From positions 1 through 55,118 of the IMG/VR virus record IMGVR_UViG_2563366941_000007: 55,118 nt of DNA, one strand, 5' to 3'. Below the pieces are notes generated by a model. It did no database searches. It worked only from the letters and a program-made list of their open reading frames with translations, and had not been told where the DNA came from. Position 1 is the stretch's first letter; the number at the start of each line of letters is the position of its first letter. The position numbers were made by a program, and so were the translations under genes. Of this stretch, positions 16,904 through 54,663 are shown piece by piece. Source of the DNA: a virus (taxonomy: Duplodnaviria > Heunggongvirae > Uroviricota > Caudoviricetes).

Positions 16904-17694
16904 TTACGCCAGTTGAACGGACACGAACTCATCAGGATCAGCCAGCAGCATCAGCGGTGCTGACTGAATCATGGTGAACTCTCGCGCCGGATCGCCGGAT
17001 GTCTTCCAGTTTTTCGGATAACGGGGAGACGCATTAATACCCTCACTCAATGCATCCGCATCCTGAATACAGCCATAGGTGCGCAGACCGCGTGCATGAG
17101 TGTTACCCAGCACCATCGTGTTGTCCGGCAGGAAGTTCTTTTTGACGCCGTTTTCCACGTACTGTCCGGAATACACGACGATGGCCACATCTCCATACAT
17201 TCCCTTATAAGACACCGCTTTGCCCAGGTCTTTTACCGCTGTCTCCAGTTCGGAATGAGAGCCGCGACGGGTATCCAGCTTCTCCCTGACGGCTTTGAAG
17301 GAACGGAACAGCGCCCAGCCTTTCGGATCAAACACGATGATATTCACCACGCCGCTGGCGTTCAGCGCGTAGGCTTCGATATCGTCGGTCGGATCATACG
17401 TGGACTTGTCACGCTTGCTCCACTCCGTGCCGCCGGACTGCGTGATGTTGTTGGCCGCACTGCGGCCCATATCCACCTCAACCGGATCGAAGGCTTCACC
17501 AGTCATGGTGTATTTGCCCTTGAGCACGGCAGAAACGGCCTGCATCTCTTCGACCTGAGCAATGGCCAGCTCTTCGTCACGCATGTTCTGCATGATGATG
17601 CGACGGCGGCGGTAAGCCGGGTCCGCCAGATTCTGCGGATCTTCATCCGGCAGGCGACGCAGGGTCATCTGCGGATTCACCTCATGCTTGGGTT
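16904..17694 (-). pseudogene. E: Major capsid protein E, C-terminal fragment (codons from ...KPKHEVNPQMTLRRL to the stop)
   Basis: Translation matches about 260 C-terminal residues of lambda gpE; the N-terminal 91 codons lie 11.6 kb away at 29261..29536. Confidence 0.9.
17685..17694. repeat. 10-bp direct-repeat core TGCTTGGGTT, left copy (element/E junction)
   Basis: Identical 10-mer at 29292..29301; both sit exactly where E homology breaks. Confidence 0.8.
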
Positions 17695-17766
17695 ACATGA
17701 GTCAAATATGAAAGGAACTGAATGATTTTTAATGAAATAAATGGCTCTCTCTATCAAAATACAGCT

Positions 17767-17792
17767 AAAAAGCAATACACGTAGCAATACAG
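17767..17792. repeat. Tandem GCAATACA(N) motifs (AAAAAGCAATACACGTAGCAATACAG), candidate integrase arm-type sites, left end
   Basis: Near-identical motif AAAAAGCAATACAAGCTGCAATACAG at 29139..29164 at the opposite end of the element. Confidence 0.45.
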
Positions 17793-17821
17793 CGCTTCGC
17801 AAAGGTATGTCACTATATCTA

Positions 17822-18790
17822 CTAGTGCCAACCAGAATACGAATATCTTTGCTTTGCTTCTTCTGGGCTCATACCCACTAGTAAAGATACTAATTCAAAG
17901 TCAGGTTGTGGAATTGGAATCAATGCAGCCAAATATGCTGGCTTATTGAGAACAATTGTTGATAATTTAGCTTTATTCACCTTAGATAACTCAATATTAC
18001 TTTCCGCTACCTTCGGGAACTCCATAATAAATGAATCAATTTCCCTTATGAGATAATCGATCAACGCCACTATACTTTCTGTCAAATCAATATATTTTGA
18101 CAACTCACTAGCACCAATTTCTTTCTTTATTTCATCCAATTTAATTTCAAACACTGGCTTGTCTTTACTGGCAATATTAGACAAACGTTTCTTTAAATCT
18201 GAATCAAGCTGATTCCTGACAATTAAACTTTTCAAAACAAAATTATAATTAAACAAAAAAGCATCAATTCGAGCAATATTCCTCCATGACTTTCCAATTT
18301 CTTCATCTGACGGCATAATAAGTTCATGTTTTAGTATCTTGTACTTAATAAAAAAAACAAACCTCTCAAATAGAGATTTATTAGCTGTGGGTATCTTTTT
18401 TATAAATGAAAGACGGCTAATATCGAAATTTACCTCCCCGGCGTTAAATAAAAATTCATTTATTGCCAGCGCTCTTAATATTGGATTTCTAGATCTCAAA
18501 CCAATATAACTACTTTTAATTCCCACAAGTGTATTTATCATCTGAAAAGAAACCATCATAAGCGTATTAGCAGAATTAAATTTCTCCGTTTCTATTTTAA
18601 TCTTCTCCTGCCTATTATTGATGCAATAAGCAGTTAAGCCTCCCATAAGCGCCGATAAAAAAGATAATGCAATAGGGAATACATAATCTTTTGTATAATC
18701 AACATCTGCTTTCAACATTAGTATTGCTTTAGCAATCAAAACTGCATCAGGGGTCATGTTAGAGCCGTCATTAAAAATTAAACACAACAC
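17822..18790 (-). CDS. Hypothetical membrane-anchored protein (N-terminal TM segments plus ~250-aa soluble domain), AT-rich cargo gene
   Basis: 322-aa ORF in a conspicuously AT-rich segment; hydrophobic stretches AVLIAKAILML and VFPIALSFLSALMGGLTAYCI near the N-terminus; no recognisable family by eye. Confidence 0.55.
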   Translation of the reverse strand: MLCLIFNDGSNMTPDAVLIAKAILMLKADVDYTKDYVFPIALSFLSALMGGLTAYCINNRQEKIKIETEKFNSANTLMMVSFQMINTLVGIKSSYIGLRSRNPILRALAINEFLFNAGEVNFDISRLSFIKKIPTANKSLFERFVFFIKYKILKHELIMPSDEEIGKSWRNIARIDAFLFNYNFVLKSLIVRNQLDSDLKKRLSNIASKDKPVFEIKLDEIKKEIGASELSKYIDLTESIVALIDYLIREIDSFIMEFPKVAESNIELSKVNKAKLSTIVLNKPAYLAALIPIPQPDFELVSLLVGMSPEEAKQRYSYSGWH

Positions 18791-19454
18791 CCATAAAATA
18801 TAACAGCTTATTGTTTAGAAAAGCAATATCATACACTCTATGATAAGCGTAATATCTGACAGGCATGGTGTGTTACGACACTTAATTAAACGTAATTTGC
18901 TAAAATTTTACACACAGAATCACACCAGGCTCTAACTCTCCTTTCATTACAATTGTAAGCATACAATTATCCTACCAGAACTTTATTGTTGAGCTCTCCC
19001 TTTTGAGCCCATCCCATAATGAATTGACGAAAGAACCGTATCTGTGGAGTAATCATTTCTGCGCGGTTCTATGTCGAAGACAAAATGTGGTATGCGCATC
19101 TAGTCAGAGGGAAAGCAATTTTTCAGGGAAATATCATCTCTACATGGTTAAAACAACCAGAAGAAGTTATCAAGCAAGTTGGGTATGAAGATTTTCCTAT
19201 AATAGTAACGAAACGGGTTTCACCTGAGCGGTTGTGTTCGATCCGCCACAATACGCATAGGATGCCCTGTAATCCGTATTCTGCTTACTCAACAGCTTAC
19301 CAGCAGGACTCGTAAGGCTGTTGCGATAGTGCAGAAGTAGGCCACGACCATAAAGTGAAGCCAGTGGCGCGTTATCGACTACTTTAGTGTAGAGCCTGAT
19401 TTCAACGCAAGCATGAGAGTTTTTTCTGGCGATAGGCCGTGACAAACAGCAACA

Positions 19455-19675
19455 AAATCAGAGAAAGGAAACGGCAGAGGCCAAAAAGCCCGTTTTCAGC
19501 GCCTGTCATTTCCTTTCTTTTCAGGGGGTATTTTAAATAAAAACATAAAGTTACGGCAAAGAAGAACGGAAAAGCCTTAAACCGGAAAATTTCCATAAAT
19601 AGAGAAAAACTGCGCGCCTGACGCCCCGTAACGTTCTGGATCGCCGGAAAGGACCCGCCAGCCAGAGCGGGCCCT
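19455..19675. other. cos-like packaging site of the satellite (cosB R-site and IHF-site homologs; divergent cosN)
   Basis: Aligns base-for-base with much of the prophage cos region 35480..35720 (e.g. GAAAGGAAACGRCAGAGGCC, TTTCCTTTCTTTTCAGGGGGTATTTTAAATAAAAACAT, CCTTAAACCGGAAAATTT); differs at about 5 positions within the cosN-equivalent segment. Confidence 0.75.
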
Positions 19676-19682
19676 AATTTCA

Positions 19683-20066
19683 TCAACCAATCAGCTTATA
19701 GCGACCATCCCGTGCATTGCGGCGTACACGCTCAATCTTGAGGCATAGCGCCGCATCTGGCTTTTTTGGGACAGGTACGCGGCAATATTCAGAAGCGCGA
19801 GGAATATTATTTATCCAGTCGATCACTTCACTTAAATACCAGGCCTTACGCCCTTCCGTAACCTGCACACGCTCCGGGAACTCTCCACTAGCCTCAAGGT
19901 TTAGCAGTGTACGACGACTCAGGGTTGTAATTTCCATCACCTGATTCATATCAACAAGGCGCTCGCTTAAACACATTTTGTCAGCGATAGCTTTTAATTC
20001 CTCTACAGCTGGATTCGGGTACATCATTTCGGCAATTGGCTTAAGGTCATTGTAATCATTCTGCAT
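19683..20066 (-). CDS. AlpA/Nu1-like HTH protein next to cos; candidate packaging-redirection (Rpp-like) or regulatory protein
   Basis: 127-aa ORF with HTH-like segment MEITTLSRRTLLNLEASGEFPERVQVTEGRKAWYLSEVIDWI; functional call is inference from position beside cos. Confidence 0.45.
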   Translation of the reverse strand: MQNDYNDLKPIAEMMYPNPAVEELKAIADKMCLSERLVDMNQVMEITTLSRRTLLNLEASGEFPERVQVTEGRKAWYLSEVIDWINNIPRASEYCRVPVPKKPDAALCLKIERVRRNARDGRYKLIG

Positions 20067-20077
20067 TGTATCCCCCT

Positions 20078-20419
20078 TTACACACGAGCCAGCGGCTGAA
20101 CAGAAATACCTGAGCCAACAAACGCTGCAACCTTTACTGACAGTTCTTTAACAGACTCAGGCCAGTTCAGAGCATCAACATTTAAGACACCTGTCTTATA
20201 GACCTGAGCCTGTGTTTTTTTCGCGGTGTCGATTTGTACAGCGGAAACATAAACCGCTTTACCTACGCTCGAACCATCCCATACCACCAGTGCACCTGTT
20301 GCATCTTCCTGCATCAGTGGCGTAAATGCAGGAATTACCCCTTTATTAGCTGAAAATATCCCCAGCGTAGTCACCAGTGCTTCAGTGCCAGCCATGAGTT
20401 CAGTGTAATGAGTAGCCAT
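20078..20419 (-). CDS. Head decoration protein, divergent homolog of lambda gpD
   Basis: 113 aa; shares PLM...VVWDGS...YKTG...WPE...AAFVGSGISV pattern with gpD (PLML...VAWDGT...YKSG...WPE...[10 protein letters not shown]). Confidence 0.7.
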   Translation of the reverse strand: MATHYTELMAGTEALVTTLGIFSANKGVIPAFTPLMQEDATGALVVWDGSSVGKAVYVSAVQIDTAKKTQAQVYKTGVLNVDALNWPESVKELSVKVAAFVGSGISVQPLARV

Positions 20420-20428
20420 TGCTCCCCC

Positions 20429-21469
20429 TTAGCCAATGCGAACGGTAACAAAACGATTGATGCGGGCCGGTATTGGCTGTGGTGCTGAATGTGTCTGCAC
20501 ATATTCAATAGCCGGATCACCAGGCACAATATAGTTTTTCGGTGCAAGTTCGGCTTTAGTCAGCCCCATTCGGATTAGCTCCGGATCCTGAATACCGCCA
20601 TAGGCGACAATCCCCTGAAGAGCCGTATTGCCAAGCACCATCAAATCAGGATCAAGGAAATGTTTTTCTGTTCCGTCCTCGTCGGTATAACGCCCGCTGT
20701 AAACAACAATCGCAACATCGCCCATATACCCTTTAAAACTCACCGAATCACCAAGGTCTTTAAGGGCCGTTTCCAGTTCGGAATTAGAACCACGACGGGT
20801 ATCCAAAGCCTCTTTTATCGCTCTGAATGAACGGTATTTCTTCCATACATTACCACCCATAATGATGATATTAGTGACGCCCTCACTAAATTCTGCGTAG
20901 CTCTCAATATCATCATTTGGATCAAAAGTTTCTTTATCCTTACCTGACCACTCAGTACCGCCAGACTGAGTGATGATATTTTGTGGTTTTATATTCCAGT
21001 CCAGCTCATAACGTTCAATACCATCGCCCTCAATGATATTTTTCCCCGTTGTGATTGCCTGAACAGCAAGCCATTCAATACGTGCACGAATAGCTTTAGC
21101 CTGATTTACAATCGCCTGTTTAACTTTAATATTACGCGCCCCAAAAGCATTGTATTGCTCAGGTGACACACCAACAGGGCGCACAGCTAACTTATTTGGA
21201 TCAATGCTGCTTTTCGGCTTCATATAACCTGGACGAATTGTTTTTGATTCGTATCCCTCATCTCGTGAAACTTTACTGCCCACCATAGGAGAGCAAAACG
21301 CCGCGATCGGGATATTTGGATCGTCGATCGTATCAAGAATAATGTCTCTCGATTCAAACATTACCGAGCGAGTGAAAAACAAACTGGTAAACAACGCATT
21401 TAATTTTTTTTGTACATCTACAGCATTAACCACCTGTACAAGCTGAGTAGGCGAATATAAATCAACCAT
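20429..21469 (-). CDS. Major capsid protein, divergent homolog of lambda gpE
   Basis: Shares PGYMKPK, QSGGTEWS, DTRRGSNSELETALKDLG, GDVAIVVYSG, MVLGNT blocks with gpE; start at 21469 is preceded by AAGAGGA. Confidence 0.8.
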   Translation of the reverse strand: MVDLYSPTQLVQVVNAVDVQKKLNALFTSLFFTRSVMFESRDIILDTIDDPNIPIAAFCSPMVGSKVSRDEGYESKTIRPGYMKPKSSIDPNKLAVRPVGVSPEQYNAFGARNIKVKQAIVNQAKAIRARIEWLAVQAITTGKNIIEGDGIERYELDWNIKPQNIITQSGGTEWSGKDKETFDPNDDIESYAEFSEGVTNIIIMGGNVWKKYRSFRAIKEALDTRRGSNSELETALKDLGDSVSFKGYMGDVAIVVYSGRYTDEDGTEKHFLDPDLMVLGNTALQGIVAYGGIQDPELIRMGLTKAELAPKNYIVPGDPAIEYVQTHSAPQPIPARINRFVTVRIG

Positions 21470-21751
21470 ACGCATCCTCTTTGCATTCATTAAAAATAAT
21501 TGTGGATATATGCTATCACCGATATTTGTCATGCGAACACATGCAACCGAGTGCAATGTTGTATAAAGTTTTGGGGTGACAACTTCAGTGCGGACAATTA
21601 GTGTTAATATCTTCACTCCCTTTGGTCGGGATTTATGTAGCATGCCGGAAAATTTATTTTTTCCGGCCTTTTTTTATTGGCAATATTTAAAACGGGGGTG
21701 ATGCTGCCAACTTACTGATTCAGTGTATGATGGTGTTTTTGAGGTGCTCCA

Positions 21752-22027
21752 GTGGCTTCTGTTTCTATCAGCTGTCCCTCCTGTTCAGCTACTGACGGGG
21801 TGGTGCGTAACGGCAAAAGCACCGCCGGACATCAGCGCTATCTCTGCTCTCACTGCCGTAAAACATGGCAACTGCAGTTCACTTACACCGCTTCTCAACC
21901 CGGTACGCACCAGAAAATCATTGATATGGCCATGAATGGCGTTGGATGCCGGGCAACAGCCCGCATTATGGGCGTTGGCCTCAACACGATTTTACGTCAC
22001 TTAAAAAACTCAGGCCGCAGTCGGTAA
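21752..22027 (+). CDS. insA: IS1 InsA
   Basis: 91-aa [43 protein letters not shown]... Confidence 0.95.
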
Positions 22028-22449
22028 CCTCGCGCATACAGCCGGGCAGTGACGTCATCGTCTGCGCGGAAATGGACGAACAGTGGGGCTATGTCGGGGC
22101 TAAATCGCGCCAGCGCTGGCTGTTTTACGCGTATGACAGGCTCCGGAAGACGGTTGTTGCGCACGTATTCGGTGAACGCACTATGGCGACGCTGGGGCGT
22201 CTTATGAGCCTGCTGTCACCCTTTGACGTGGTGATATGGATGACGGATGGCTGGCCGCTGTATGAATCCCGCCTGAAGGGAAAGCTGCACGTAATCAGCA
22301 AGCGATATACGCAGCGAATTGAGCGGCATAACCTGAATCTGAGGCAGCACCTGGCACGGCTGGGACGGAAGTCGCTGTCGTTCTCAAAATCGGTGGAGCT
22401 GCATGACAAAGTCATCGGGCATTATCTGAACATAAAACACTATCAATAA
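21946..22449 (+). CDS. insB: IS1 InsB reading frame (InsAB' transposase made by -1 frameshift)
   Basis: ORF ...[50 protein letters not shown]... typical of IS1 InsB. Confidence 0.9.
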
Positions 22450-22463
22450 GTTGGAGTCATTAC

Positions 22464-22913
22464 CTAAAACGGGATATCATCTCCCCATTGCTCATTATCT
22501 CCCACTGGTGGCTGGCTTCCTTGCTGATCTGCCTGTTGTTTTGCTCTGTTCAGTGCGTCAGTAGCCTGCCCCTGTTGGCCTTTATTGCCGCCCGGTCGCA
22601 CCGATCGCGCACTGATTACGCTGTCTGCGATAACCTGCCAGCCCTGCCGCGTTTCGCCGTTCTGTCCAGTCCACTGGCTCATCTGCATGTTACCCGCCAC
22701 GCTCAGGAGTTCGCCTTTGTGATGCTTTGCCAGCGCGTCGGCTTGTCTGCCAAACGCCAGGACAGATAACCACATCGTCGCCTGACCGTCATCCGACTGA
22801 CTGCAGGGCAGTGATACCGCCATACGCGCCAACGTCATGGGGGTGCCCTTGCTGGTCTGTTTTGTCTGCGGGTCGTCCACCGACCGCCCGTAAACTGATA
22901 TTTGCGCCGTCAT
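22464..22913 (-). CDS. Single-stranded DNA-binding protein (SSB-like)
   Basis: 149-aa ORF with OB-fold-like core and acidic C-terminal tail ending DDIPF; the present stop codon TAG is formed by the last base of IS1 plus the target duplication. Confidence 0.7.
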   Translation of the reverse strand: MTAQISVYGRSVDDPQTKQTSKGTPMTLARMAVSLPCSQSDDGQATMWLSVLAFGRQADALAKHHKGELLSVAGNMQMSQWTGQNGETRQGWQVIADSVISARSVRPGGNKGQQGQATDALNRAKQQADQQGSQPPVGDNEQWGDDIPF

Positions 22914-23155
22914 GCGGCCTGCTCTCCGGACTTAATATTGATTGTTGTCACTTCCTCCGCTTCAGCAATCTCCCGTTCGGTCAGAGTGGCAAAGTTTGCA
23001 GCCGCCGTTGTCATGAATGCGCTAATCAGTTCGGGATGTGCTTTCGCGTATCCTTCCCCGGCGTTGCGGTCGATGATTTTTATCGACACCCTTAACCAGT
23101 ATTCCGTCAAATCAAGGGCGTGCGATTGTGATTTTTTTGTGTGCTTCGCTGTCAT
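22910..23155 (-). CDS. Hypothetical protein (81 aa) upstream of ssb
   Basis: ORF with overlapping ATGA junction to ssb; no recognisable family. Confidence 0.4.
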   Translation of the reverse strand: MTAKHTKKSQSHALDLTEYWLRVSIKIIDRNAGEGYAKAHPELISAFMTTAAANFATLTEREIAEAEEVTTINIKSGEQAA

Positions 23156-23205
23156 AGGCTTTATCTCACAGCAGTAAATTAAAATTTTTGCGTTTTAACC
23201 CTTCA

Positions 23206-23430
23206 TCTGTTCACCTTTTGATATTTTCTCTTTTAATTCATAATGTTAATGGGTAAACAGTTTCACAAAAACTATTCACCAACTGTTCACCACTGTTCAC
23301 CCTTGAAGCTCAATAAACAATCAAAAAGGTGAACAGTGAATAGTTTGGTGAACAGTTCATAAATAACTGTTCACCCTATAATATACTGATATAAAAGATA
23401 TTTATGACAGGGTGAACAGTGGTGAACAGT
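23206..23430. repeat. Iteron cluster (about 9 copies of GGTGAACAGT / ACTGTTCACC in both orientations): candidate replication origin
   Basis: Repeats read directly at 23206, 23272, 23282, 23292, 23328, 23347, 23367, 23411, 23421; AT-rich spacers; immediately 3' of the rep gene. Confidence 0.7.
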
Positions 23431-23442
23431 TATTCCATAAGT

Positions 23443-25263
23443 TTAATTTTTGCTATCGTCATTAGTGACCGATACACATGATGGCATCCAGTCTTCTGAT
23501 TCCTCCGTCAGTGTCACGTTTGAACGCAAACCGTGCTTCGTTTTCCGTTTCATATACTCCCTGCCATATTCCGCCATTGCCCCCGGCATATCTTTACCGA
23601 AGCGCGTCAGTGTTACAGGTTTACCAAACCCATGTGCCCTCATATAAGCCAGATAGGCATGATAGAGATACCTGCGTGGGCTGAATGGCACAATTTCAGC
23701 ATTACCCACTAACAGGCCATCACACATTACCGATGCCATGAGATAGCCGCAGAAGTCCACCAGCGAATCCCCCTCTCGCTTTATCGCCAGTGCTTCTTCA
23801 GATTTCTGCTGCTCATATAACAGGCGTCTGGCTTCGTCCTGATCAGCAAACCGTGTAAGCAGATGACGAATCACTACCGCCAGCTCACCTTCTATTTTTT
23901 CCGCCAGCATCGAATCGCGTTCGTTCTCCGGTACAACTTCCGAAAAATTGAATATCACCCGACGACGTGAGATCCCCCCGCTGCGGTCACTGAATGACAT
24001 GGCGTTATTGTTAACCGCCAGCACTACTGCCGGAATACGCGTTGAATAGGGGGCTTTGTGTTTCGGGTCAATTGCCACCTTGTCACCGCCTGTAATGGCC
24101 TTAATCCCTGCCCCATCACCAGCGTAGCGGGTCATATCCGGCATGATAATCAGCGAAAAGCCAACCACTAACGCACGTTCCCTTGCATCTTCCAGCGCCT
24201 TCATGCTTGCTGATACTGTATTAGCCTTACCCGCCAGCATGGTGCAAATCTCCGCCATCACACTTTTACCACTTCCCCCCGGCCCTGTTACCTCAATGAA
24301 TAACTGCCAGTCGTACCGGTTCGCCAGCACCATGAATAATGCCGCCAGTACGCGATCTGCCTTGCGGTCATTCTCAGCCACCGAACGGCGCAACCACTTC
24401 CAGAAATTCGGCGCATGTGTTGCCAGCGTTTCCCCCTCTGCTGGTGGGCTGAAAGGTAATTCACTGGCAATTAACAACCAGTCGTTTTTGTTATGCTCCC
24501 GAAAATTACCAGTTCTGGTATCAAATACCCCGTTACTGAATCCAATCAGGTTACGGGCTGTATTCCCCATTACAGGCAAACTTAACTTCATGGTATCTAC
24601 CGCCGATTTAATAGCGTTCTGCGAATAGCTGATCTCCGCATCAATGAAAATCTGCGCCATAGCACGCTGTAACTCTTTATCCTGAACCGGCTCCCATACA
24701 ACGCCGTTGTAATGATGAACGGTGTCAGAGTCGGCATTGATTGCCAGTTCACCGCCATAATGTGCAAGGAGAACTTCACCGCGCTGGCTGGCCCCCATCT
24801 GATTCAACGCCAAAGATGAAGCACGCTCGTCATTTTTGCGCTCTGCCTTCTTCACTGGCAGTTCAATCACCAGACTTTCCCCATGCTCCGCTTCAGCTTT
24901 TAGGCCGACAAGGCGCGGAGTCCAGTCTTCAGGCTCTCGATCAACAAAGCTACGGTAACAACGTGCTTCCTTTACGCCTGCAATAGCAAGTAATGTCGCA
25001 ACCTTCGTCAGACTTTTCTCTGCAATCTTTCCGGCACGATAAACACGCACATAATGACGGCCTTCATCGATAATTTGCATATCATCCAGGTTTTCCAGTT
25101 GTTCCGTACCCAGAATGACTGGTGGTGTATCATCTGCTGCAATATGCTTACCTGCCCATTCATTCCATTCTTTTGCATGGCTCCAGGCATCACTGCCAGC
25201 AAAAATGATGACTTCCGTCATTTTGTCGCGCGGTTGGTATTTTAAGTTCGGAGCACGTTTCAT
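23443..25263 (-). CDS. Replication initiator, P4-alpha/D5-type SF3 helicase family (primase-helicase-like)
   Basis: 606-aa ORF with Walker A GPGGSGKS and surrounding D5/SF3-helicase-like sequence; adjacent to the iteron cluster. Confidence 0.7.
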   Translation of the reverse strand: MKRAPNLKYQPRDKMTEVIIFAGSDAWSHAKEWNEWAGKHIAADDTPPVILGTEQLENLDDMQIIDEGRHYVRVYRAGKIAEKSLTKVATLLAIAGVKEARCYRSFVDREPEDWTPRLVGLKAEAEHGESLVIELPVKKAERKNDERASSLALNQMGASQRGEVLLAHYGGELAINADSDTVHHYNGVVWEPVQDKELQRAMAQIFIDAEISYSQNAIKSAVDTMKLSLPVMGNTARNLIGFSNGVFDTRTGNFREHNKNDWLLIASELPFSPPAEGETLATHAPNFWKWLRRSVAENDRKADRVLAALFMVLANRYDWQLFIEVTGPGGSGKSVMAEICTMLAGKANTVSASMKALEDARERALVVGFSLIIMPDMTRYAGDGAGIKAITGGDKVAIDPKHKAPYSTRIPAVVLAVNNNAMSFSDRSGGISRRRVIFNFSEVVPENERDSMLAEKIEGELAVVIRHLLTRFADQDEARRLLYEQQKSEEALAIKREGDSLVDFCGYLMASVMCDGLLVGNAEIVPFSPRRYLYHAYLAYMRAHGFGKPVTLTRFGKDMPGAMAEYGREYMKRKTKHGLRSNVTLTEESEDWMPSCVSVTNDDSKN

Positions 25264-25526
25264 TTGTTACCTCCGGCAACTAACATTGCCCGAATTTTAC
25301 GGATATAGCCTGCGGCACGCCTCTGATTATCTGTCTTGCAATTTTTTACCAGAATGAAATCTCTTTCGAACTGCTGACGCGGCATAACACATTCAAAATC
25401 ATAACCATCACGCAAATAAGAGACACGACGATCATCAACCGAAATAATCTTTACCCGATAGCCATAGCTGTCTTTGAAAATATCCCCAAGGCTGATTTTT
25501 GAATGAGTGGATTTGACCGCTGGCAA
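25260..25526 (-). CDS. Hypothetical protein (88 aa), translationally coupled to rep
   Basis: ORF with ATGA overlap to the rep start. Confidence 0.4.
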   Translation of the reverse strand: MPAVKSTHSKISLGDIFKDSYGYRVKIISVDDRRVSYLRDGYDFECVMPRQQFERDFILVKNCKTDNQRRAAGYIRKIRAMLVAGGNK

Positions 25527-25554
25527 TAAAGCCAGAAAATTTATTTTTCATTTT

Positions 25555-25779
25555 TTATTCTCCGGTATAGCTCTGGTCGTGTATTTTTATAGCTTCATCC
25601 AGCTCTTTGATGACAGGATCAAGTAACGTAATTAACGCTCCAGCTAAATTAGCATCCCGTTCATCGTGTTCCGCATTTGTTGTCCCATCAAGCCAGGTTG
25701 ATAAGATTTCTCGCATATTTTTGCCACAAACGAGCGCGTTTTCAGCATGTGTCAGCACTTTAAAATAAAGATCATTCAT
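25555..25779 (-). CDS. Hypothetical protein (74 aa)
   Basis: ORF in the same operon orientation; overlaps the upstream ORF by 8 nt. Confidence 0.4.
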   Translation of the reverse strand: MNDLYFKVLTHAENALVCGKNMREILSTWLDGTTNAEHDERDANLAGALITLLDPVIKELDEAIKIHDQSYTGE

Positions 25780-25975
25780 GGCACACCTCCTGACGAATAC
25801 GGGCGGCGAATATCATCACGTAGCCAGTTGGGGATTGCAGCCGGGCTTCCTGTTCGCTGGCGGCCTCGATGGTAATCACGCGCGGTTGTGCCGTACTCAG
25901 GGCGATAAAACGCCAGATGTATTTATTCAGGTTGTGCGGGTCCCGCCCTTGCGGGTGTGTGGTATGATTTCTCAT
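25772..25975 (-). CDS. Hypothetical protein (67 aa), first gene of the leftward replication operon
   Basis: Start at 25975 is preceded by GAGG at good spacing; the ORF track's longer 104-aa version is probably over-extended. Confidence 0.4.
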   Translation of the reverse strand: MRNHTTHPQGRDPHNLNKYIWRFIALSTAQPRVITIEAASEQEARLQSPTGYVMIFAARIRQEVCHE

Positions 25976-26010
25976 AGCTACCTCGATACTGTTGCTATCG
26001 TTGGTGGTTA

Positions 26011-26056
26011 GAAGCCCGTTGGTGTTCCTAGCACCTTCGGGCTTTGCTTTTTTAAG
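26011..26056 (+). terminator. Two-tier GC hairpin followed by a T-run (terminator-like or small RNA 3' end)
   Basis: GAAGCCCG...CGGGCTTT stem enclosing GGTG...CACC, followed by GCTTTTTT; no plus-strand gene upstream. Confidence 0.3.
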
Positions 26057-26068
26057 TGCCTCCGTGTT

Positions 26069-26118
26069 AAGGTGGTCACCTAACAATGAAAAGGCTAATT
26101 CAATAGGTGGTCACTTGT
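26069..26118. promoter_or_regulatory. Direct repeats AGGTGGTCAC (two copies ~36 bp apart) upstream of the RHH gene; candidate operator
   Basis: AAGGTGGTCACCTAACA at 26069 and AGGTGGTCACTTGTCAACG at 26105, in the divergent intergenic region. Confidence 0.35.
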
Positions 26119-26174
26119 CAACGATCAAACGCGATAAAAGTCCTAAGGGTGATGGGCAATCTCCACAATTCAGA

Positions 26175-26306
26175 ATGCGAATTTCTCCAGAGCTAAAAGA
26201 GCAATTCGACAAAGAAGCGCAGAGCGACGGCATAAGCCTAGCCAACTGGCTTAAAGAATTAGGGCGCAAAGAGCTGCTACGGCGCGGTATTGAACCAAAA
26301 GGATAA
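26175..26306 (+). CDS. Ribbon-helix-helix (Arc/CopG-like) DNA-binding protein
   Basis: 43-aa product MRISPELKEQFDKEAQSDGISLANWLKELGRKELLRRGIEPKG has an RHH-like strand-helix-helix pattern; start chosen inside the longer ORF 25992..26306. Confidence 0.5.
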   Translation: MRISPELKEQFDKEAQSDGISLANWLKELGRKELLRRGIEPKG

Positions 26307-26333
26307 GAATAATTGAAGTCAAGGAGCTAACAC

Positions 26334-26690
26334 ATGAAATACGAATTCTTCGCAACAAGTAGCAGTAGTTTGGATGTATACATAGTCACTGTATCAAACG
26401 ATTCTGGCTCTCTAATCATGACTTGTAATTGTCCAGCAGGAAGTAAAGGTATTCTATGTAGACACCGTAAAGCTTTAATTACCGGAAAAATCCGCGGTAT
26501 ATTCACTCCCCCAAGAAGGAATAATCCCGAAAAATTACAAGAAGCTATAAATTTAATAGCCACATATGGCATAGATAAAACATTAAAGTTGTACACTGAT
26601 GAGTTAGAACGAGCAGAACAGACTTGGATAAGTGTTCGCGATAATTTGAGAGCAATGATAAACGCTCTTGTTGAACCACCTAAATATTGA
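26334..26690 (+). CDS. Small SWIM-type zinc-finger protein (CxCx9CxH), AT-rich cargo gene
   Basis: 118 aa; motif MTCNCPAGSKGILCRH; strongly AT-rich coding sequence. Confidence 0.5.
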   Translation: MKYEFFATSSSSLDVYIVTVSNDSGSLIMTCNCPAGSKGILCRHRKALITGKIRGIFTPPRRNNPEKLQEAINLIATYGIDKTLKLYTDELERAEQTWISVRDNLRAMINALVEPPKY

Positions 26691-26821
26691 ACTGTTCACA
26701 TTGCCTATCAGGCGATAACCTCGTATTCTGATTAAGGCTAACTATATACTCACATTGGCGACCAATTCTGGTCGCCTTTATCTACCATTTTTATAATATC
26801 ATAGATTAAGAGTGTTAATCC

Positions 26822-27676
26822 TTACCCCCTGAATGGAATTGATGAGGATTTAATTTCCACAGAACCAAATCCTCTTGAATCCAAAAACATTTTTATACCA
26901 GCCTCAATAAAATCATAATCGCTTGTCGGGCCAATTGTAATGCTTTTAATTGGTAACTTTCTATTATCTTTATTATTAATAATGATATAAGGGATGATAC
27001 CATTATTATTTATTCTAAATTTCACATCTGGCATTTGTATCCACGGAGTAAACACCAGTCTAAATTCATTTTCTTCGATAAAACTAGGATGTTTAAAAAA
27101 TGGGATATATTTAGATATAAATTGATACGTAGAGACCATTGTTACAAAATGATCATTCATTTCTTTAATGTTAATACCATTACAAGAAAAAAACTCATCC
27201 AACTCCTTACTCATCTTTGTAATATCGTCATTATTTGAATATATAACATCATGTGCAACACAATTTAAATAAATATTTTGACAAAAACTCACAAGTTCAT
27301 CCGCATCAAATTCAATGCAAACGCCCTGTTTATTTCCGTAACCTCTCCACTGACTTAACTTATCGTTTTCTTTACAAAAAGATATGCTATAAACATGTTT
27401 ATCAATCCCTTTTTCTTTTTGTAACTTCCCTTTCTCATACATGTCAAGAGACTTGAGCAAAATAGTTTTCTTATCTTTTGGGATGATATTATCATCAACT
27501 ATTTTAATTGTATTTCGAAAACATTCACATCCATGGTTAGACTCCTCTTTATCATTTAAGAAATATATATTTGTAGCCCATAAAGAATTAGAGTCTAATA
27601 TACCTTTCAAACCAAAAAGATCTGTATAATGAAATATAGCCACAATGCCCCACCTAATAGTTAAGTCGTTTCCCAC
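26822..27676 (-). CDS. DUF2971-like protein, AT-rich cargo gene (candidate defence-associated)
   Basis: 284 aa; N-terminal FHYTDLFGLKGILDSNSLWATNIYFLNDKEE fits the DUF2971 signature as recalled; AT-rich. Confidence 0.55.
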   Translation of the reverse strand: MGNDLTIRWGIVAIFHYTDLFGLKGILDSNSLWATNIYFLNDKEESNHGCECFRNTIKIVDDNIIPKDKKTILLKSLDMYEKGKLQKEKGIDKHVYSISFCKENDKLSQWRGYGNKQGVCIEFDADELVSFCQNIYLNCVAHDVIYSNNDDITKMSKELDEFFSCNGINIKEMNDHFVTMVSTYQFISKYIPFFKHPSFIEENEFRLVFTPWIQMPDVKFRINNNGIIPYIIINNKDNRKLPIKSITIGPTSDYDFIEAGIKMFLDSRGFGSVEIKSSSIPFRG

Positions 27677-27891
27677 TCACCTCGAATCCATGCCTGCACT
27701 TCTGAAAGACGATATGCAACAGCAGTGGAACCAATCTTGATCCGCTTAGGAAATTTTCCTTCCTTCTCCAGCTTCCAGCGTGTGCTGTTCGCAAGAGTGG
27801 TTAGCTCCCGACATTCTTTCTCACGGATCATACGATCGATGTTAGGAATGTACTCCAGACCCTTTTTATCAACAATTGCCATTTTTTTCAT
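27661..27891 (-). CDS. alpA: AlpA-family transcriptional regulator/excisionase-like HTH protein
   Basis: 76 aa; ...LTTLANSTRWKLEKEGKFPKRIKIGSTAVAYRLSEVQAWIRG matches the AlpA (CP4-57 regulatory) family; adjacent to int. Confidence 0.75.
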   Translation of the reverse strand: MKKMAIVDKKGLEYIPNIDRMIREKECRELTTLANSTRWKLEKEGKFPKRIKIGSTAVAYRLSEVQAWIRGEWETT

Positions 27892-27892
27892 G

Positions 27893-29128
27893 TTAACCAG
27901 CCTTTTGTTTGAGGATTGTCACTTTTGAATCAGCACCTGCGATGCTATTGAGATATGTAGTCCAGAGTTCCAGAGCATCCAGTTTTTTAGCCATAAACTT
28001 ACTCCGGTTGTAAACACCCGCCACGCCAGGTAGCGCATGGCCTAACAGTTGTTCTACTACATAAAATTCAACACCGAGATCACTTAGATGAGTAGATAGC
28101 GTTCTTCTAAGGTCGTGTAGTGACCATTGTTTTTCATGGCCCAAACGTTTACCGATTTTCCCCCCAATCTTGCTTACGCTTTCTCTAATTCGCAGACTTC
28201 CCAGCACATAACCAGTATGTCTTGTCTCTTCGTGAACATCCGTTACCCACTGTCGTAGAATTTCAGGTACTGGTCTGACGATTTCAACACCAGTTTTTGA
28301 GTGATCTTTTGGTACCGTCCAAACCCAACTTTCGAGATCCCATTCGCTCCATTCAGATAATCGGGCTTCACTCATTCGACATCCAAATACTGTACAAAGC
28401 ACAAACATTTTTCGCGTGTATTCAGACATTAGTTTTAAATCAGGCTCGACAAAAATTGCCTTCCAGAGCTGGCCCAGTTCGGCTTCATCCAGAACCCGAT
28501 CCCGCTTACCTGCAATCTGCCCCACATCACTCATGCGCAAATCCTTTAAAGCATCACATGTCGCGTACTGGCGTACCCGACAAAAACGAAGAGCTAATTT
28601 AGTGTCAGAAAAAACATACGCCGCCATAACTGGTGCATTACGTTTAATTCGGTCAAAACAGTCCAGCCATTCATATAGGTGAGTGTCATTTACAGGCAAA
28701 TGACCGATATAGGGAAAGATATGCTTTCGAAATCTGCCAAGCGTTACAGCATGAGTTTTACGACGCACCTTACAGTAATTTTCATACCAGTAATTTAGTG
28801 CATCCTCCACTGTGACCGGCTTTAAGCGTTCTTCAGCCTGAATCTTAATCTGGATACGCGGATCACGTTTGTCAGCCAACCAACCACGGCACTCGTCGCG
28901 CTTTTCCCTTGCCTGTTTGAGTGACATATCAGGATATTTACCCAACGTTAGCCAGACCGGAGCAGCCCGGCCACCTGCTAACCTGTAGAAGAAAACAAAG
29001 CTCACAGCCCCCTTGGTACTCACACGAATAGAAAGCCCCTTTCCATCAGCAATGGTGATCTGCTTTTCTCTGGGTTTCCCCAGATATCCTTTAAGCGCTT
29101 TGTCGCTCAGTTTGTTCTCGCCAGCCAT
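27893..29128 (-). CDS. int: Tyrosine integrase, P4-like family
   Basis: Start MAGENKLSDKALKGYLGKPREKQITIADGKGLSIRVSTKG... has a P4-integrase-like N-terminus; C-terminal HDLRRT...LLGH...Y catalytic-region motifs; sits at the element end. Confidence 0.85.
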   Translation of the reverse strand: MAGENKLSDKALKGYLGKPREKQITIADGKGLSIRVSTKGAVSFVFFYRLAGGRAAPVWLTLGKYPDMSLKQAREKRDECRGWLADKRDPRIQIKIQAEERLKPVTVEDALNYWYENYCKVRRKTHAVTLGRFRKHIFPYIGHLPVNDTHLYEWLDCFDRIKRNAPVMAAYVFSDTKLALRFCRVRQYATCDALKDLRMSDVGQIAGKRDRVLDEAELGQLWKAIFVEPDLKLMSEYTRKMFVLCTVFGCRMSEARLSEWSEWDLESWVWTVPKDHSKTGVEIVRPVPEILRQWVTDVHEETRHTGYVLGSLRIRESVSKIGGKIGKRLGHEKQWSLHDLRRTLSTHLSDLGVEFYVVEQLLGHALPGVAGVYNRSKFMAKKLDALELWTTYLNSIAGADSKVTILKQKAG

Positions 29129-29138
29129 TTTTAGCCCC

Positions 29139-29164
29139 AAAAAGCAATACAAGCTGCAATACAG
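29139..29164. repeat. Tandem GCAATACA(N) motifs (AAAAAGCAATACAAGCTGCAATACAG), candidate arm-type/operator sites, right end
   Basis: Matches the motif at 17767..17792; lies just upstream of the int start codon. Confidence 0.45.
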
Positions 29165-29260
29165 AGATGATTGCAACACACAGATAACGAGGAAAATTCA
29201 GTGAAAGCGCCAGATAAACTTATTCTTTATTATCAAAAGATTAAGTGTAAAAACCAGCAA

Positions 29261-29536
29261 CTACACGAAAGCCTCAGAAAGCCATGCTAAGTGCTTGGGT
29301 TTGACATATCCCGGCGTAAATTCAGAGGTGGAGCCGCCACGGGAGCGGATAACCTCACCGGAAACAATCGGCGAAACGTACAGCGCCATGTTTACCAGTC
29401 CCGGAATTTGTGAGAGATAGACTTTCTCCGTAGTGAAGGGATAGCTCTCACGGAAAAAGAGACGCAGAAACAGCGGATCAAACTTAAATTTCTGCTCATT
29501 TGCCGCCAGCAGTTGGGCGGTTGTGTACATCGACAT
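29261..29536 (-). pseudogene. E: Major capsid protein E, N-terminal fragment (91 codons) fused to 9 element-derived codons
   Basis: MSMYTTAQLLAANEQKFKFDPLFLRLFFRESYPFTTEKVYLSQIPGLVNMALYVSPIVSGEVIRSRGGSTSEFTPGYVKPKH then LAWLSEAFV-stop. Confidence 0.9.
29292..29301. repeat. 10-bp direct-repeat core TGCTTGGGTT, right copy (element/E junction)
   Basis: Identical to 17685..17694. Confidence 0.8.
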
Positions 29537-29555
29537 AAAAAAATCCCGTAAAAAA

Positions 29556-29571
29556 AGCCGCACAGGCGGCC
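29556..29571 (-). other. GC hairpin with minus-strand T-run between D and E (terminator/attenuator-like)
   Basis: GCCGC-ACAG-GCGGC stem flanked by an A-run on the plus strand. Confidence 0.3.
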
Positions 29572-34960: not shown

Positions 34961-35480
34961 TCAGCAACCCCGGTATCAGTTCATCCAGCGCGGCTGCTTT
35001 GTTCATGGCTTTGATGATATCCCGTTTCAGGAAATCAACATGTCGGTTTTCCAGTTCCGGAAAACGCCGCTGCACCGACAGGGGGATCCCGTCGAGAATA
35101 CTGGCAATTTCACCTGCGATCCGCGACAGCACGAAAGTACAGAATGCGGTTTCCACCACTTCAGCGGAGTCTCTGGCATTTTTCAGCTCCTGTGCGTCGG
35201 CCTGCGCACGCGTAAGTCGATGGCGTTCGTACTCAATAGTCCCTGGCTGGAGATCTGTCTCGCTGGCCTGCCGCAGTTCTTCAACTTCCCGGCGCAGCTT
35301 TTCGTTCTCAATTTCAGCATCCCTTTCGGCATACCATCTTATAACGGCGGCAGAGTCATAAAGCACCTCATTACCCTTGCCACCGCCTCGCAGAACGGGC
35401 ATTCCCTGTTCCTGCCAGTTCTGAATGGTACGGATACTCGCACCGAAAATGTCAGCCAACTGCTTTTTGTTGACTTCCAT
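34935..35480 (-). CDS. Nu1: Terminase small subunit Nu1
   Basis: 181-aa ORF MEVNKKQLADIFGASIRTIQNWQEQGMPVLRGGGKGNEVLYD... = gpNu1. Confidence 0.95.
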
Positions 35481-35720
35481 TGTTCATTCCACGGCCAAAA
35501 ACAGAGAAAGGAAACGACAGAGGCCCAAAAGCTCGTTTTCAGCACCTGTCGTTTCCTTTCTTTTCAGGGGGTATTTTAAATAAAAACATTAAGTTACGAC
35601 GAAGAAGAACGGAAATGCCTTAAACCGGAAAATTTTCATAAATAGCGAAAACCCGCGAGGTCGCCGCCCCGTAACCTGTCGGATCGCCGGAAAGGACCCG
35701 CAAAATGATAATAATTATCA
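35480..35720. other. cos: Prophage cos site (cosB R-sites/IHF site and cosN; cohesive-end 12-mer AGGTCGCCGCCC at 35667..35678 on the plus strand)
   Basis: Reverse complement of the lambda left-end sequence GGGCGGCGACCTCGCGGGTTTTCGCTATTTATGAAAATTTTCCGG..., directly upstream of Nu1. Confidence 0.9.
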
Positions 35721-37297: not shown

Positions 37298-37568
37298 GAT
37301 GTTACCGTAGTATGTGAGTATCCATCGAATAGACACCAAGCAAAAAAGCTCCCGAAGGAGCCTTCATTTTCACTTTTTTAAATCCAACGACAGACGGCTG
37401 GCATTTAAGTATTGTGAAATATTATCAAATGTAATCATCATTGATTTACAAAAGATACATTTTGCCCCGAAAGGATTCATGTCAGAAACATCAAAAGATG
37501 ATGTTCTATACTGGGAACCATGACAACACGGGCATCTAAAGTGAATATGGTTTGTAATATTGTCTACC

Positions 37569-37781
37569 TCAAAGCGCCACTACATGAACAGCGGCAGGAC
37601 CTTTAGGTCCGTTCTCAATACCAAATTCAACTTCCTGATTCTCAGTTAATGTTTTGAAATCGTTGCTCTGAATTGCTGAGAAATGGACAAACACATCTTT
37701 GCTGCCATCTTTCGGCGTGATGAAACCAAAACCTTTTTCAGGGTTAAACCATTTCACTAAACCAGTCATTTTGTTAGACAT
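37569..37781 (-). CDS. cspI: Cold shock protein CspI-like
   Basis: 70-aa [45 protein letters not shown]... Confidence 0.85.
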
Positions 37782-38143
37782 AATTATTACCTTTTGAAGA
37801 AATTAGCCCTTGGGCAGAATGGTCCGAAAAAAAATATCAGAGAGAAAAACCAACAAGGAAATCTCAAGAGGTACAAATAATAAAATTATAACAATGACTG
37901 CTTCAGATAAATTTGTAACAAACCAGAACACCATTAACGCATGATTAACCACCCATAGCAAGGATTACTTTTGTAAAGAAAAACACAGCAATGAAAGAAT
38001 AGCTTTATTTATTAATAAAACGTGTCATTCTGATTAAGACCTTTTATCTTACCCTTAAGATTTCAGGAATTTTGGCTCATGGAAGAGTCCTTTTTATTTA
38101 AATTTTACATTCCGCGATGTAAATGTTCCGATTTAATATTACC

Positions 38144-40171: not shown

Positions 40172-40452
40172 GAGATTGTGGTGCTTTTTGTGGGAGTCAT
40201 CCACTTACGCACTTTGTTTTGCCATGCCAGCAGTTAGCTTCTGCTGTAAAACTATTCATGCAGCAAACCTGCACTTCACCACAATGGTTAGCATACTTTT
40301 CCTGATTAAGATTTTGCCAAATATGCTAGCCATTGTTTCATGTATTGGACCTCCTTACTTTTTATTAAAGAGATCCAATATTCACTACTCTGTCCGTATC
40401 TCTACTCAGGCATCAGCCTTCTTCGTTATCGTATACAGACGAGCGATGAATT

Positions 40453-40668
40453 TTAATCAGTAATGATGACATTTGCTGCTGCAGGACCTTTAGCACCACT
40501 CTCTATAGAGAAGGTAACCTTTTGACCTTCAAATAAGGTTCGATAATTATCATTCTGAATCGCAGAAAAATGCACAAACACATCTTTACTACCATCAACA
40601 GGAGAAATAAAGCCGAAACCTTTATCAGCGTTAAACCATTTTACTAAACCAGTCATTTTATTTGACAT
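40453..40668 (-). CDS. cspB: Cold shock protein CspB
   Basis: 71-aa [53 protein letters not shown]... Confidence 0.9.
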
Positions 40669-40968
40669 TCTACATTCCTTAACTTGAGCCTTTCGGCATA
40701 AATGGTTTGCATAACAGAAACGACTTCGTACTTAATTGGAGAGACTCAAAGAAGGAATAAGTGAATAACACCTGAAATGAGAACTGCTTTAGTAAACTAC
40801 TTCGTATATCGTCTGTTCTTCAAACCGACGCAATCATTAACGCATAGTTGAACATATGAAGCAATGTTTATTTTAGACATCCAGCCATCTTCAACCCCAT
40901 CAAAAAACTATAGCTTTCTTCAGGAACGTGTGTATAGTGCGCCAAGTTATCAGTATTAAGGAATTTTT

Positions 40969-47601: not shown

Positions 47602-49177
47602 GAAAAATCCCCCAGAGAATTGTCTGGGGACATTTTAGAATGGTTCAAAGGGGACATTACAGCTTGGTGTTAACAATAGCCTGCTTCTCCGTGCCTTTCG
47701 GCACGTAAGAGGCTAACCTACATGTGTCTAGCATGAAATTGGCCTCAGATTAATGTTAAGCGTCTTGCAGGACGCGTAATGTTAACTGGGGCTTTTCTCT
47801 ATCTGCCGTTGGTGTCCATGCCCGAGGCAGATAGCCTCAAGCACCCGCAGTCATTCTACTTAACTAAGATTTCCCCGCAAACCGTTTTTGTCCAGCACAG
47901 TAAATATCCAACTAAACCAATGGAGTTCGCTGTATTTACCGCCAGTATTCAATGCACATGACCGCCATGAACACCCCTAAAAAAAGGGCATTTATATATC
48001 CAAATATTAATATCAAAACATCAACTTTTTCCATATACCTTGCTGTGAAGATGATGGGCATACATGATGCGAACAACCAGAACGCAACAAACAAAAACTG
48101 CAATGCGTTTTTCATTATTCCTCCTACAATCAATGTGCAATTACATTTAAACACACCTCAATTTGGCCGGACATATAAATATCTAAACCAGAAAAAATCA
48201 CTTACATAGCGTTACAAACTCTTTAGTCTAAAGGTTCATCGTAAAACATTCCCCATACTTATCAGTCCGTTCCGCGCCAGGTAGCTCATTGCCTTATCTG
48301 GCAACCTGTAATCAGGTTTCCGCTTTTTCAGTTGGCTGGTCGTTTAACCGACATAGTTAATCCATTAATCTAGTTGCCGGATGTTGGTGGATTTTCGCGT
48401 TTTAGTTGTTCATAAAAGTGCACAGCTTTAACCAGTTCTTCTGATGTAACTGGGACTGGTGAGGCAGTGAATAAGGCCTGAATTTGATAGTTCGGCCTGT
48501 CGTTACAATCCTCTTTTTTCGGTACATATTTCCAGTCACCAGACCACTACTTCCCCTGAAAGTCCGTAACGCCTTTTTTCACGTAGCGATATCGCCATGC
48601 CACTGGTTTTACTTGCCCCGCCGTTTCATGCCCTTCCTGATAATTAATCTCGCTCATTCATCGCCCCACTCATCACAATATGCTTCGACCGGAGTTTTTC
48701 CCGCTTCATAGTCATCACGCTAGGATTCGACATCAGCAGCACTTCCACCGCGTAACTCACCATAGTCCATTAATAGTTCATCCCGCTCTTCAAAACTGAT
48801 GTTATATTTAGCTGAACAAAAATCAGCCACTTTGTTCTTCCTCATCGTCTTTTATTTCGTGGTATGAGTAATTGCAGTAGTTAAAGAAAATTTCTTATGC
48901 TCCGTCATGAATTTCCTCAGGTGTTGCGTCATCGTCCACTTCGAATACATCCTCAAAATCTCCACCAGCTATTCCCGTTTCAATAATAATTTTGAACTTT
49001 CGCATTTCACTACCGCCCTTTCGGGCGGCCTCCTGATGTTCTGAGGGTGCGGAAATCCATCCGGTTAAGGATTAAATTTTATTTACAGAACTGAATTTAA
49101 TTATTCAGATATACGTATCTGTAGCCTTACGAATCTACTCACTGGATGCCTCTTTCATAAAAATAATCCAGTGGGTT

Positions 49178-50614: not shown

Positions 50615-51505
50615 TCAGGCTGCCAGATCATCGTTTCCGATGGAAGCATAATAAGCTTTTTCTGCTTCTGCCGGAGGAGTATGGCCCAGCCTTTCCAGCA
50701 ATCGTCGATTGTTATACCAGTCCACCCACGTGAGTGTGGCCAGTTCCACTTCTGCACGGTTTTTCCAGCTCTTACGGTGTATTACCTCCGCTTTGTAAAG
50801 ACCATTGATGCTCTCCGCCATCGCGTTGTCATACGAGTCGCCTGTACTTCCTGTTGATGCCAGTAATCCGGCTTCCTTAAGCCGCTGTGTGTAGGCCAGC
50901 GATACATACTGAGAACCTTTATCACTGTGATGGACCGTGCCGGACGGTCGACGGGCCCATAACGCCTGCTCCAGTGCATCCAGCACGAATGTCGTTTCCA
51001 TGGACGATGAGACCCGCCACCCCACGATGTATCCGGCAAACACATCAATGATGAACGCCACATAGACGAAGCCCCGCCATGTGCTGACGTAAGTAAAATC
51101 AGCCACCCACAGCTGGTCAGGTCGTTCTGCCACGAACTGACGGTTTACGCGGTCGCCTGCGGCAACGGCTTTCCGGCTGATGGTCGTACGGACCTTTTTA
51201 CCCCGGAGAACACCGGCAAGTCCCATAACCGCCATGAGACGTGCCACAGTGCATCTGGCCACTCTGATACCTTCCCGTAACAACTGACGCCAGACTTTAC
51301 GCACACCGTATACCTTGTGATTTTCATCGTATACGCGCTGTATCTCTTTCTTCAGCCAGTCATCGCGCTGCGCACGGGCACTGCGTTTATCCGGATGATG
51401 TCGCTGTTGCTGACAGTGGTAATACGTTGACGGGGCAATATGCAGTTCGCTGCATAGCGGTCCGACCCCGTACTGCTCACGCAGCTTATCCAGCAGTGGC
51501 ATCAT
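50615..51505 (-). CDS. IS3-family transposase OrfB (expressed as OrfAB via -1 frameshift)
   Basis: DDE integrase-core sequence ...[34 protein letters not shown]...HHSDKGSQY... Confidence 0.85.
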
Positions 51506-54610: not shown

Positions 54611-54663
54611 TTTCTGGTGACGTTTGGCGGTATCAGTTTTACTCCGTGATTGCTCTGCCGCCC
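54611..54663 (+). ncRNA. dicF: DicF small regulatory RNA (ftsZ-targeting sRNA), followed by a T-run
   Basis: TTTCTGGTGACGTTTGGCGGTATCAGTTTTACTCCGTGATTGCTCTGCCGCCC matches recalled DicF with one mismatch; terminator T-run at 54664..54668. Confidence 0.85.

Follow-up and report, generated by a model that had tools for sequence, protein, structure and literature searches.

Helper-embedded PICIs (HE-PICIs) are satellites for whose prototype induction, excision and helper-dependent transfer have been reported (PMC10111431). The same paper proposes that late transcription of the helper reads through into elements of this type, and it states, citing earlier work, that transfer with the aid of a helper does not require the capsid genes of PICIs (PMC10111431). 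The insertion sequence IS1 has a record of its own: it carries an outward-facing −35 box in its inverted repeat, which yields a hybrid promoter when a −10 box is well placed beside it, whereas IS1 copies lacking a well-placed −10 box leave transcription unchanged or reduced (PMC8764528), and IS1-created hybrid promoters are documented (PMC9330008, Table 1). In the stretch of viral DNA analyzed here, which is 55,118 nt long and which we call the window, an IS1 copy lies at the very end of the ssb gene of such a satellite. Our reading, which we hold with considerable though not complete confidence, is that this is a standard transposition of IS1A into the AT-rich boundary between ssb and the adjoining spacer of a helper-embedded PICI.

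The satellite extends over 17685..29301 on the minus strand and measures 11,607 bp from core to core (10,830 bp if IS1 and the duplication are subtracted). It interrupts the capsid gene E of a prophage, such that profile positions 1-78 of the helper E protein are encoded at 29261-29563 and positions 94-328 at 16904-17680. Its ends share a 10-bp att identity block, TGCTTGGGTT, at 17685-17694 and 29292-29301 inside E, and excision in silico at this 10-bp core restores a 341-aa lambda-type E protein. A doubled motif, TGTATTGC / tgTGTATTGCantgTGTATTGCa, is present at 17767-17792 and 29139-29164; the published description puts it at distances of about 81 and 132 bp from the centre of att (PMC10111431). 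With the split E gene, the 10-bp att block, the doubled motif and a PICI gene set all found, the element can be assigned from its sequence to a known kind, a helper-embedded PICI of the '11capE' type at the site Phage_cap_E_80 (PMC10111431).

The gene set, all of it on the minus strand, begins with a tyrosine integrase (29179->27893), assigned from Pfam, PHROGs and the RefSeq annotation of the related satellite in E. coli ET490 (L001). Genes for an AlpA, a DUF2971 and a DUF4222 protein follow in that order between the integrase and a D5-type primase (25263->23443). Downstream of the primase gene lies an AT-rich iteron region (23156-23442, 28-37% GC), which is likely the replication origin of the satellite and is situated away from IS1. 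Direct repeats that begin with TGGTGAACAGTT were seen in this region at 23346 and 23420. An 81-aa ORF separates the iteron region from ssb.

Beyond ssb and its spacer, the satellite encodes its own major capsid protein of the lambda E family (346 aa, 20429..21469; Pfam Phage_cap_E, 5.5e-41) and a head-decoration protein of the lambda D family (113 aa, 20078..20419; Pfam HDPD, 4.5e-15), which agrees with the E-like and D-like identities suggested in the initial annotation of this DNA. The two are 42% and 38% identical to the helper E and D proteins, respectively. The next gene past this capsid module encodes a 127-aa AlpA-family HTH protein (19683..20066), placed by PHROGs in the class 'excisionase and transcriptional regulator'; in a sequence search of the PDB at E<=10 its only credible match was an AlpA-family chain (8c3t, 2.1e-9). 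Homology of this protein to Rpp (redirecting phage packaging) or RppC was considered and set aside, as the same search returned no Rpp chain. The stretch at about 19400-19660 is 90% identical to helper positions 35443-35701, the region of cos and the start of Nu1, and presumably comprises the cos site of the satellite and, as a 94-aa ORF (19402-19686), a fragment resembling Nu1. The att-proximal end of the satellite forms a variable cargo slot (17706-19451 in the window, 8920-11052 in L001). In the window this slot holds a 322-aa ORF (17822-18790, phrog_21267) that has no Pfam match, and PADLOC, run on this ORF and its neighbours, gave nothing convincing. In relatives (L001; L011-L013, L015) the slot carries DUF262+HEPN, TIR_2, HEPN_RiboL-PSP or DUF2971 genes, so that it looks like a hot spot for anti-phage defence.

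The helper prophage contributes Q, lysozyme, Nu1, A, portal, C and D genes upstream of the satellite and tail genes downstream. The satellite genes and the helper late genes are all co-oriented on the minus strand, and the gene for the Q antiterminator is present. Elsewhere in the window we noted a match to IS10 RNA-OUT at positions 1-62, cut by the window start, and, at 50615-51828, an IS3-family element whose two transposase ORFs overlap and which contains an ALIL frameshift pseudoknot (51431-51547). Rfam matches at 37542-37927, 40437-40829, 47675-47846 and 54612-54663 correspond to two cspA-type thermoregulator leaders, a sok antitoxin RNA and DicF; all of these belong to the early and lysis part of the helper, and together they recall the Qin/Kim prophage of E. 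coli K-12.

Base-for-base comparison with E. coli IS1A copies identifies the inserted block as a complete IS1 of the IS1A type, 768 bp long, at 21697..22464 on the plus strand. The same limits had been proposed beforehand from inspection of the sequence, and they hold: alignment to E. coli IS1A copies covers 768/768 bases with one mismatch and gives the same boundaries, and both inverted repeats lie at the exact ends. The block opens with GGTGATGCTGCCAACTTACTGAT and closes with ATCAATAAGTTGGAGTCATTACC; the IRL (GGTGATGCTGCCAACTTACTGAT, 21697-21719, plus strand) and the IRR (GGTAATGACTCCAACTTATTGAT, 22442-22464, minus strand) match exactly and are the only IS1 ends in the 55-kb window, where none is expected by chance. 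A megablast search of 5,426 complete E. coli genomes returned thousands of full-length IS1 matches, the best of them at 99.9%, and aligned all 768/768 bases at that identity to IS1A family transposase copies. When compared base by base with a common IS1A copy (L005), 767/768 positions agree, and the sole mismatch is a C for T at IS1 position 25 (window 21721), just inside the IRL. Both insA (91 aa, 21752-22027) and the insB frame (167 aa, 21946-22449) are open on the plus strand, according to the ORF listing, and sequence comparison finds the A6C −1 frameshift motif, TTAAAAAAC, intact on the same strand at 22001-22009 (IS1 position 305); a near-identical IS1 copy carries the RefSeq annotation 'programmed frameshift'. 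The genes of another copy of the same insertion (L018, see below) match Pfam DDE_Tnp_IS1, Zn_ribbon_InsA and HTH_Tnp_IS1. All coding and end sequences of the window copy are intact, and the features by which an IS1 is recognized were all found: full-length identity, imperfect inverted repeats of about 23 bp, insA/insB with the A6C motif, and a 9-bp duplication.

That duplication consists of two copies of TAAAACGGG, the left at 21688..21696, adjoining the IS1 end, and the right at 22465..22473, which also encodes the last ssb codons (..CCG TTT TA). This 9-mer occurs exactly twice in the 55 kb, each time touching one IS1 end, and two given 9-mers are identical by chance with a probability of 4^-9 (about 4e-6). 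IS1-free versions of the satellite exist in many E. coli genomes. The closest of them, that of E. coli ET490, has flanks 99.7% identical to those in the window, contains a single TAAAACGGG, and reads ...ttattggcaatattTAAAACGGGatatcatc... across the empty site. The window flanks joined in silico match it exactly and are contiguous there. The matched stretch of 2,624 bp falls short of the 3,401-bp query by 777 bp, the combined length of IS1 and a single copy of the 9-mer, and blastn of the whole window against L001 produced two alignment blocks that overlap by 9 bp. A single TTTAAAACGG marks the empty site in 8/8 IS-free relatives, and none of the IS-free relatives aligned (L001 and these eight) has a different sequence at the insertion site. 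The flanking 9-mers that had been described as identical are therefore a true duplication, present twice in the window and once in the IS-free copy, and the comparison with ET490 recovers one 9-mer, a TAA stop and contiguous flanks.

The satellite ssb runs from 22913 to 22464 on the minus strand (22464..22913) and encodes a 149-aa protein ending in GDDIPF (Pfam SSB, 5.9e-15). In ET490 its 3' end reads GAT GAT ATC CCG TTT TAA; in the window it reads ...CCG TTT TAG. The TAG is the complement of 22466, 22465 and 22464, with T and A coming from the right copy of the duplication and G being complementary to the final IS1 base, 22464. The original TAA is still there, orphaned, as the complement of 21689-21687, in the left copy of the duplication plus position 21687. 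The initial annotation had the stop as TAA before and TAG after the insertion, and the C-terminal tail of SSB as unchanged; both points are confirmed by ET490, where the gene ends in TAA and the protein, like that of the window, ends in DDIPF, with 0 differences over 149 aa. In mechanistic terms, and reading on the coding strand, the staggered 9-bp cut started two bases into the TAA stop; repair left the ssb-side duplication joined to the end of IS1, the terminal C of which is a G on the coding strand, giving TAG.

The same annotation had spoken of a regenerated stop; the TAG is real, but it is nothing special. When we simulated IS1 insertion at each offset from −12 to +7 in both orientations, TAG was produced by either orientation, because both IS1 ends (...ACC/GGT...) supply the same terminal base, and the rebuilt stop is therefore automatic. 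A requirement for selection to explain the reconstruction was rejected on this ground, and the 'regeneration' of the stop is no notable coincidence. In the simulation the observed offset, 0, was the innermost position of IS1 that leaves SSB unchanged; offset +1 adds a Trp behind the terminal Phe, and offsets beyond +1 replace or extend the DDIPF tip. The C-terminal tip of SSB, including the free carboxylate of the Phe, is the docking site for partner proteins, and IS1 insertions lying deeper in ssb would probably be selected against.

To find further carriers, contigs encoding exactly this SSB were looked up, and three more GenBank assemblies proved to have IS1 in the interval from ssb to the capsid gene. 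CP077281.1 (L014) has both junctions and an IS1 identical to that of the window, with C at position 25; it matches the window at 100% over 6,052 bp and has an extra IS3-family insertion further upstream. GCA_964039295.1 (L018) also has both junctions and carries T, the ancestral base, at position 25. GCA_000407945.1 (L020) contains the right junction only, with Ns after it. The insertion junction was absent from the 5,426 RefSeq complete E. coli genomes when these were searched with 3.4-kb and 120-bp junction queries, and 365/5,426 of them have the uninterrupted ssb-capsid junction of the same family. Among the matches discarded in this search, two genomes covering at least 80% of the long query have IS1 elsewhere in related satellites, and three matches to the 120-bp query (at least 80% coverage) are an unrelated IS1 beside ydgC, at 87% identity. 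The exact junction 32-mer gave no match in GTDB species representatives or JGI metagenomes, a result that is uninformative on spread.

Because all IS1 cases found have identical junctions, they represent a single event that a small clade of E. coli has inherited; among the carriers found, none has an independent IS1 insertion (in the other orientation or in another flanking haplotype) at the same 9-mer. Since L018 shares the insertion and has T at position 25, the C arose after the insertion, so that the inserted copy was at first identical to the common IS1A, with the T->C change occurring later, in one lineage. The IS1 junction and this later change provide a natural marker for one lineage of helper-embedded satellite. 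Other insertions were seen among related satellites: IS1B, IS1 or an IS3-family element occupies other sites between genes in L002, L003 and L014, and IS200C lies at 4270-4985 of L004, with the same junctions in L017.

On the other side of IS1, the native spacer between ssb and the capsid gene (21470..21687, minus strand, 217 bp) is intact: IS1 sits at its ssb-proximal edge, and the whole 217 bp is still joined to the capsid gene. With its start codon at 21469 and the edge of IS1 at 21697, this gene lies at the distance of about 227 bp given earlier; the 227 nt are made up of the 217-bp native spacer, the old stop codon and seven duplicated bases. Among related satellites the spacer shows a mean column identity of about 91%, whereas the adjacent 3' end of ssb diverges (alignment A1), and because it is the more conserved of the two, the spacer probably carries signals of its own. 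A hairpin with a 9-bp stem at 21644-21667 (−14 kcal/mol, z of about −2.6 to −2.9) has a T-run behind it on the plus strand only, antisense to the genes; it is therefore not one that would stop sense transcription, and it may terminate an antisense RNA that is not annotated, or bind a protein. Rfam searches of the whole window and, with permissive settings, of the spacer gave no relevant family for the spacer, and a His_leader match (E=0.38) was attributed to chance. A consensus fold of eight close spacer sequences has just two pairs with compensatory change, so that no structure can be claimed beyond the hairpin. A consensus scan of the spacer for a convincing sigma-70 promoter found none.

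IS1 is transcribed in the direction opposite to the ssb and capsid genes, which lie on the minus strand. Sense transcripts leaving ssb would enter IS1 from the IRR, antisense to insB and insA, and transcripts started in the satellite that run past ssb would thus consist, for the next 768 nt, of untranslated, moderately C-rich antisense IS1 RNA. No long ORF is present in this RNA, and its C/G ratio is 1.3-1.6 between nt 100 and 400, which is compatible with the loading of Rho. IS1 is classically polar in both orientations, and Rho probably ends satellite-started read-through transcripts here, which would make the insertion polar for them. Polarity, which the initial annotation had raised as a possibility along with outward promoter activity, is thus plausible for such transcripts. 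What it would mean changes because the element is a helper-embedded PICI in a prophage capsid gene, a context that the initial annotation had not recognized. The Q-modified polymerase of lambdoid phages ignores such terminators, and late transcription of the helper, modified by Q, should read through IS1 as long as the satellite is embedded; the polarity would then mainly affect read-through from satellite promoters. The insertion would also spare the C-terminal tip of SSB, the replication origin and the entire conserved spacer before the capsid gene. As for packaging, four copies of the satellite would amount to 46.4 kb with IS1 (4 × 11.6 kb) and 43.3 kb without it, within the packaging limits of lambda. 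We infer that the insertion is neutral or nearly so.

It could instead be disabling, if the capsid, decoration and AlpA-like genes rely on read-through from the ssb operon after excision. In this alternative, Rho-dependent polarity blocks the whole module and the window holds a partly crippled satellite en route to decay, an outcome that we regard as unlikely but deserving of weight. It supposes that the module is normally expressed from the primase-ssb transcription unit, with which its genes are co-oriented, and the native spacer, having no hairpin plus U-run in the sense direction, would permit such co-transcription; moreover, the antisense IS1 RNA is untranslated and C-rich, and IS200C, IS1B and an IS3-family element have accumulated in related satellites. 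Against this stand the integrity of the downstream genes and the 99.7% identity of the flanks to the closest IS-free copies. The conservation of the spacer, above that of the ssb 3' end, points to regulatory signals of its own, Q antitermination could carry late transcription of the helper through in spite of the polarity, and PICI capsid genes are reported to be dispensable for transfer (PMC10111431). An effect in the opposite direction, in which a hybrid promoter at the IS1 edge gives helper-independent expression of the satellite capsid module, seems improbable to us. A promoter scan did return a candidate on the correct strand, TTGGCA-17-AATATT (21682..21710, minus strand), with its −35 inside the IRL (21710-21705), its −10 at 21687-21682, a 17-nt spacer made of 8 nt of IS1 and the 9-nt duplication, and its direction toward the capsid gene, and there is precedent for IS1 hybrid promoters (PMC8764528, PMC9330008). 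Yet the match is only 9/12, the −10 hexamer lacks its first T, and sites of this quality are as frequent as in shuffled background (three in 2 kb versus 2.9 expected in shuffles). IS1 without a well-placed −10 left transcription unchanged or reduced (PMC8764528), and a stable hairpin lies 15 nt downstream of the candidate. In general, InsA binds the IS1 inverted repeats and would probably occlude a −35 box located there, which also argues against activation. Most far-reaching would be a rewiring of the satellite in which IS1 takes the capsid/decoration/AlpA-like module off the replication operon and puts it under an InsA-modulated hybrid promoter, and we give this very little credence. If it were true, the divergent E/D pair (about 40% identical to that of the helper) would be made without helper induction and could disturb capsid assembly of incoming lambdoid phages.

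Two further alternatives concern the position itself rather than its effect. That the boundary between ssb and the capsid gene was selected, or is a hot spot, for instance because an insertion there uncouples the two modules, is a reading to which the presence of an unrelated IS200C in the same spacer of other strains (L004, L017) lends some appeal. The IS200C copies share both junctions, however, and so amount to one event, just as the IS1 cases with their identical junctions do; IS200C moreover lies in the T-run behind the hairpin, and relatives carry IS insertions at several other intergenic positions. IS1 prefers AT-rich targets, and the stretch in which it sits here is AT-rich. We accordingly think a chance choice of site far more credible, and a selected or favoured site quite improbable. 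As IS1 is multicopy in E. coli (median 11 places per genome) and a classic source of misassembly, one might also suspect that an assembler misplaced a copy. Both junctions are clean, the target duplication is perfect, the pair of them recurs in two independent assemblies, of which one is a complete chromosome, and a third assembly has the right junction, so that we practically dismiss an artefact. Standard transposition of IS1A with little or no consequence for the satellite is thus the reading that we retain.

On this reading the insertion is real and ordinary, involving a known IS, a canonical duplication, a silent position at a gene end and a known type of satellite, and each of these is already known; the satellite context is interesting biology, but it too has already been described. 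Its importance is accordingly small, that of a clean textbook example of IS1 transposition, which illustrates how insertions at gene ends can be silent when the stop is rebuilt by the terminal base of IS1. For annotation, it follows that ssb should not be called disrupted and that the orphan TAA and the seven duplicated bases should not be over-interpreted. Furthermore, IS1-bearing and IS1-free satellites form a ready pair for asking whether the capsid module is served by a promoter in the spacer or by read-through.

In comparison with described systems, the insertion has the properties of the IS1 family of Enterobacteriaceae throughout: the same 768 bp, imperfect inverted repeats of about 23 bp, insA/insB and the A6C motif as in IS1A, and the same 9-bp target duplication at an AT-rich site, with the C at position 25 as the only difference from the common IS1A of E. 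coli. Relative to the IS1 hybrid promoters known for bla, acrEF and afaA, the window has the same outward −35 at 17 bp from an A/T-rich flanking hexamer, but its −10 (AATATT) is weak, and those cases were found through a selected phenotype. The satellite, for its part, resembles the 11capE HE-PICIs in its site in the lambdoid capsid gene E (at about codon 80) and its orientation, in the 10-bp att block and the doubled TGTATTGC motif, and in the gene order int - alpA - primase - ssb - own E-family capsid gene; what sets the window copy apart from its relatives is the IS1 and a different cargo gene, the 322-aa ORF.
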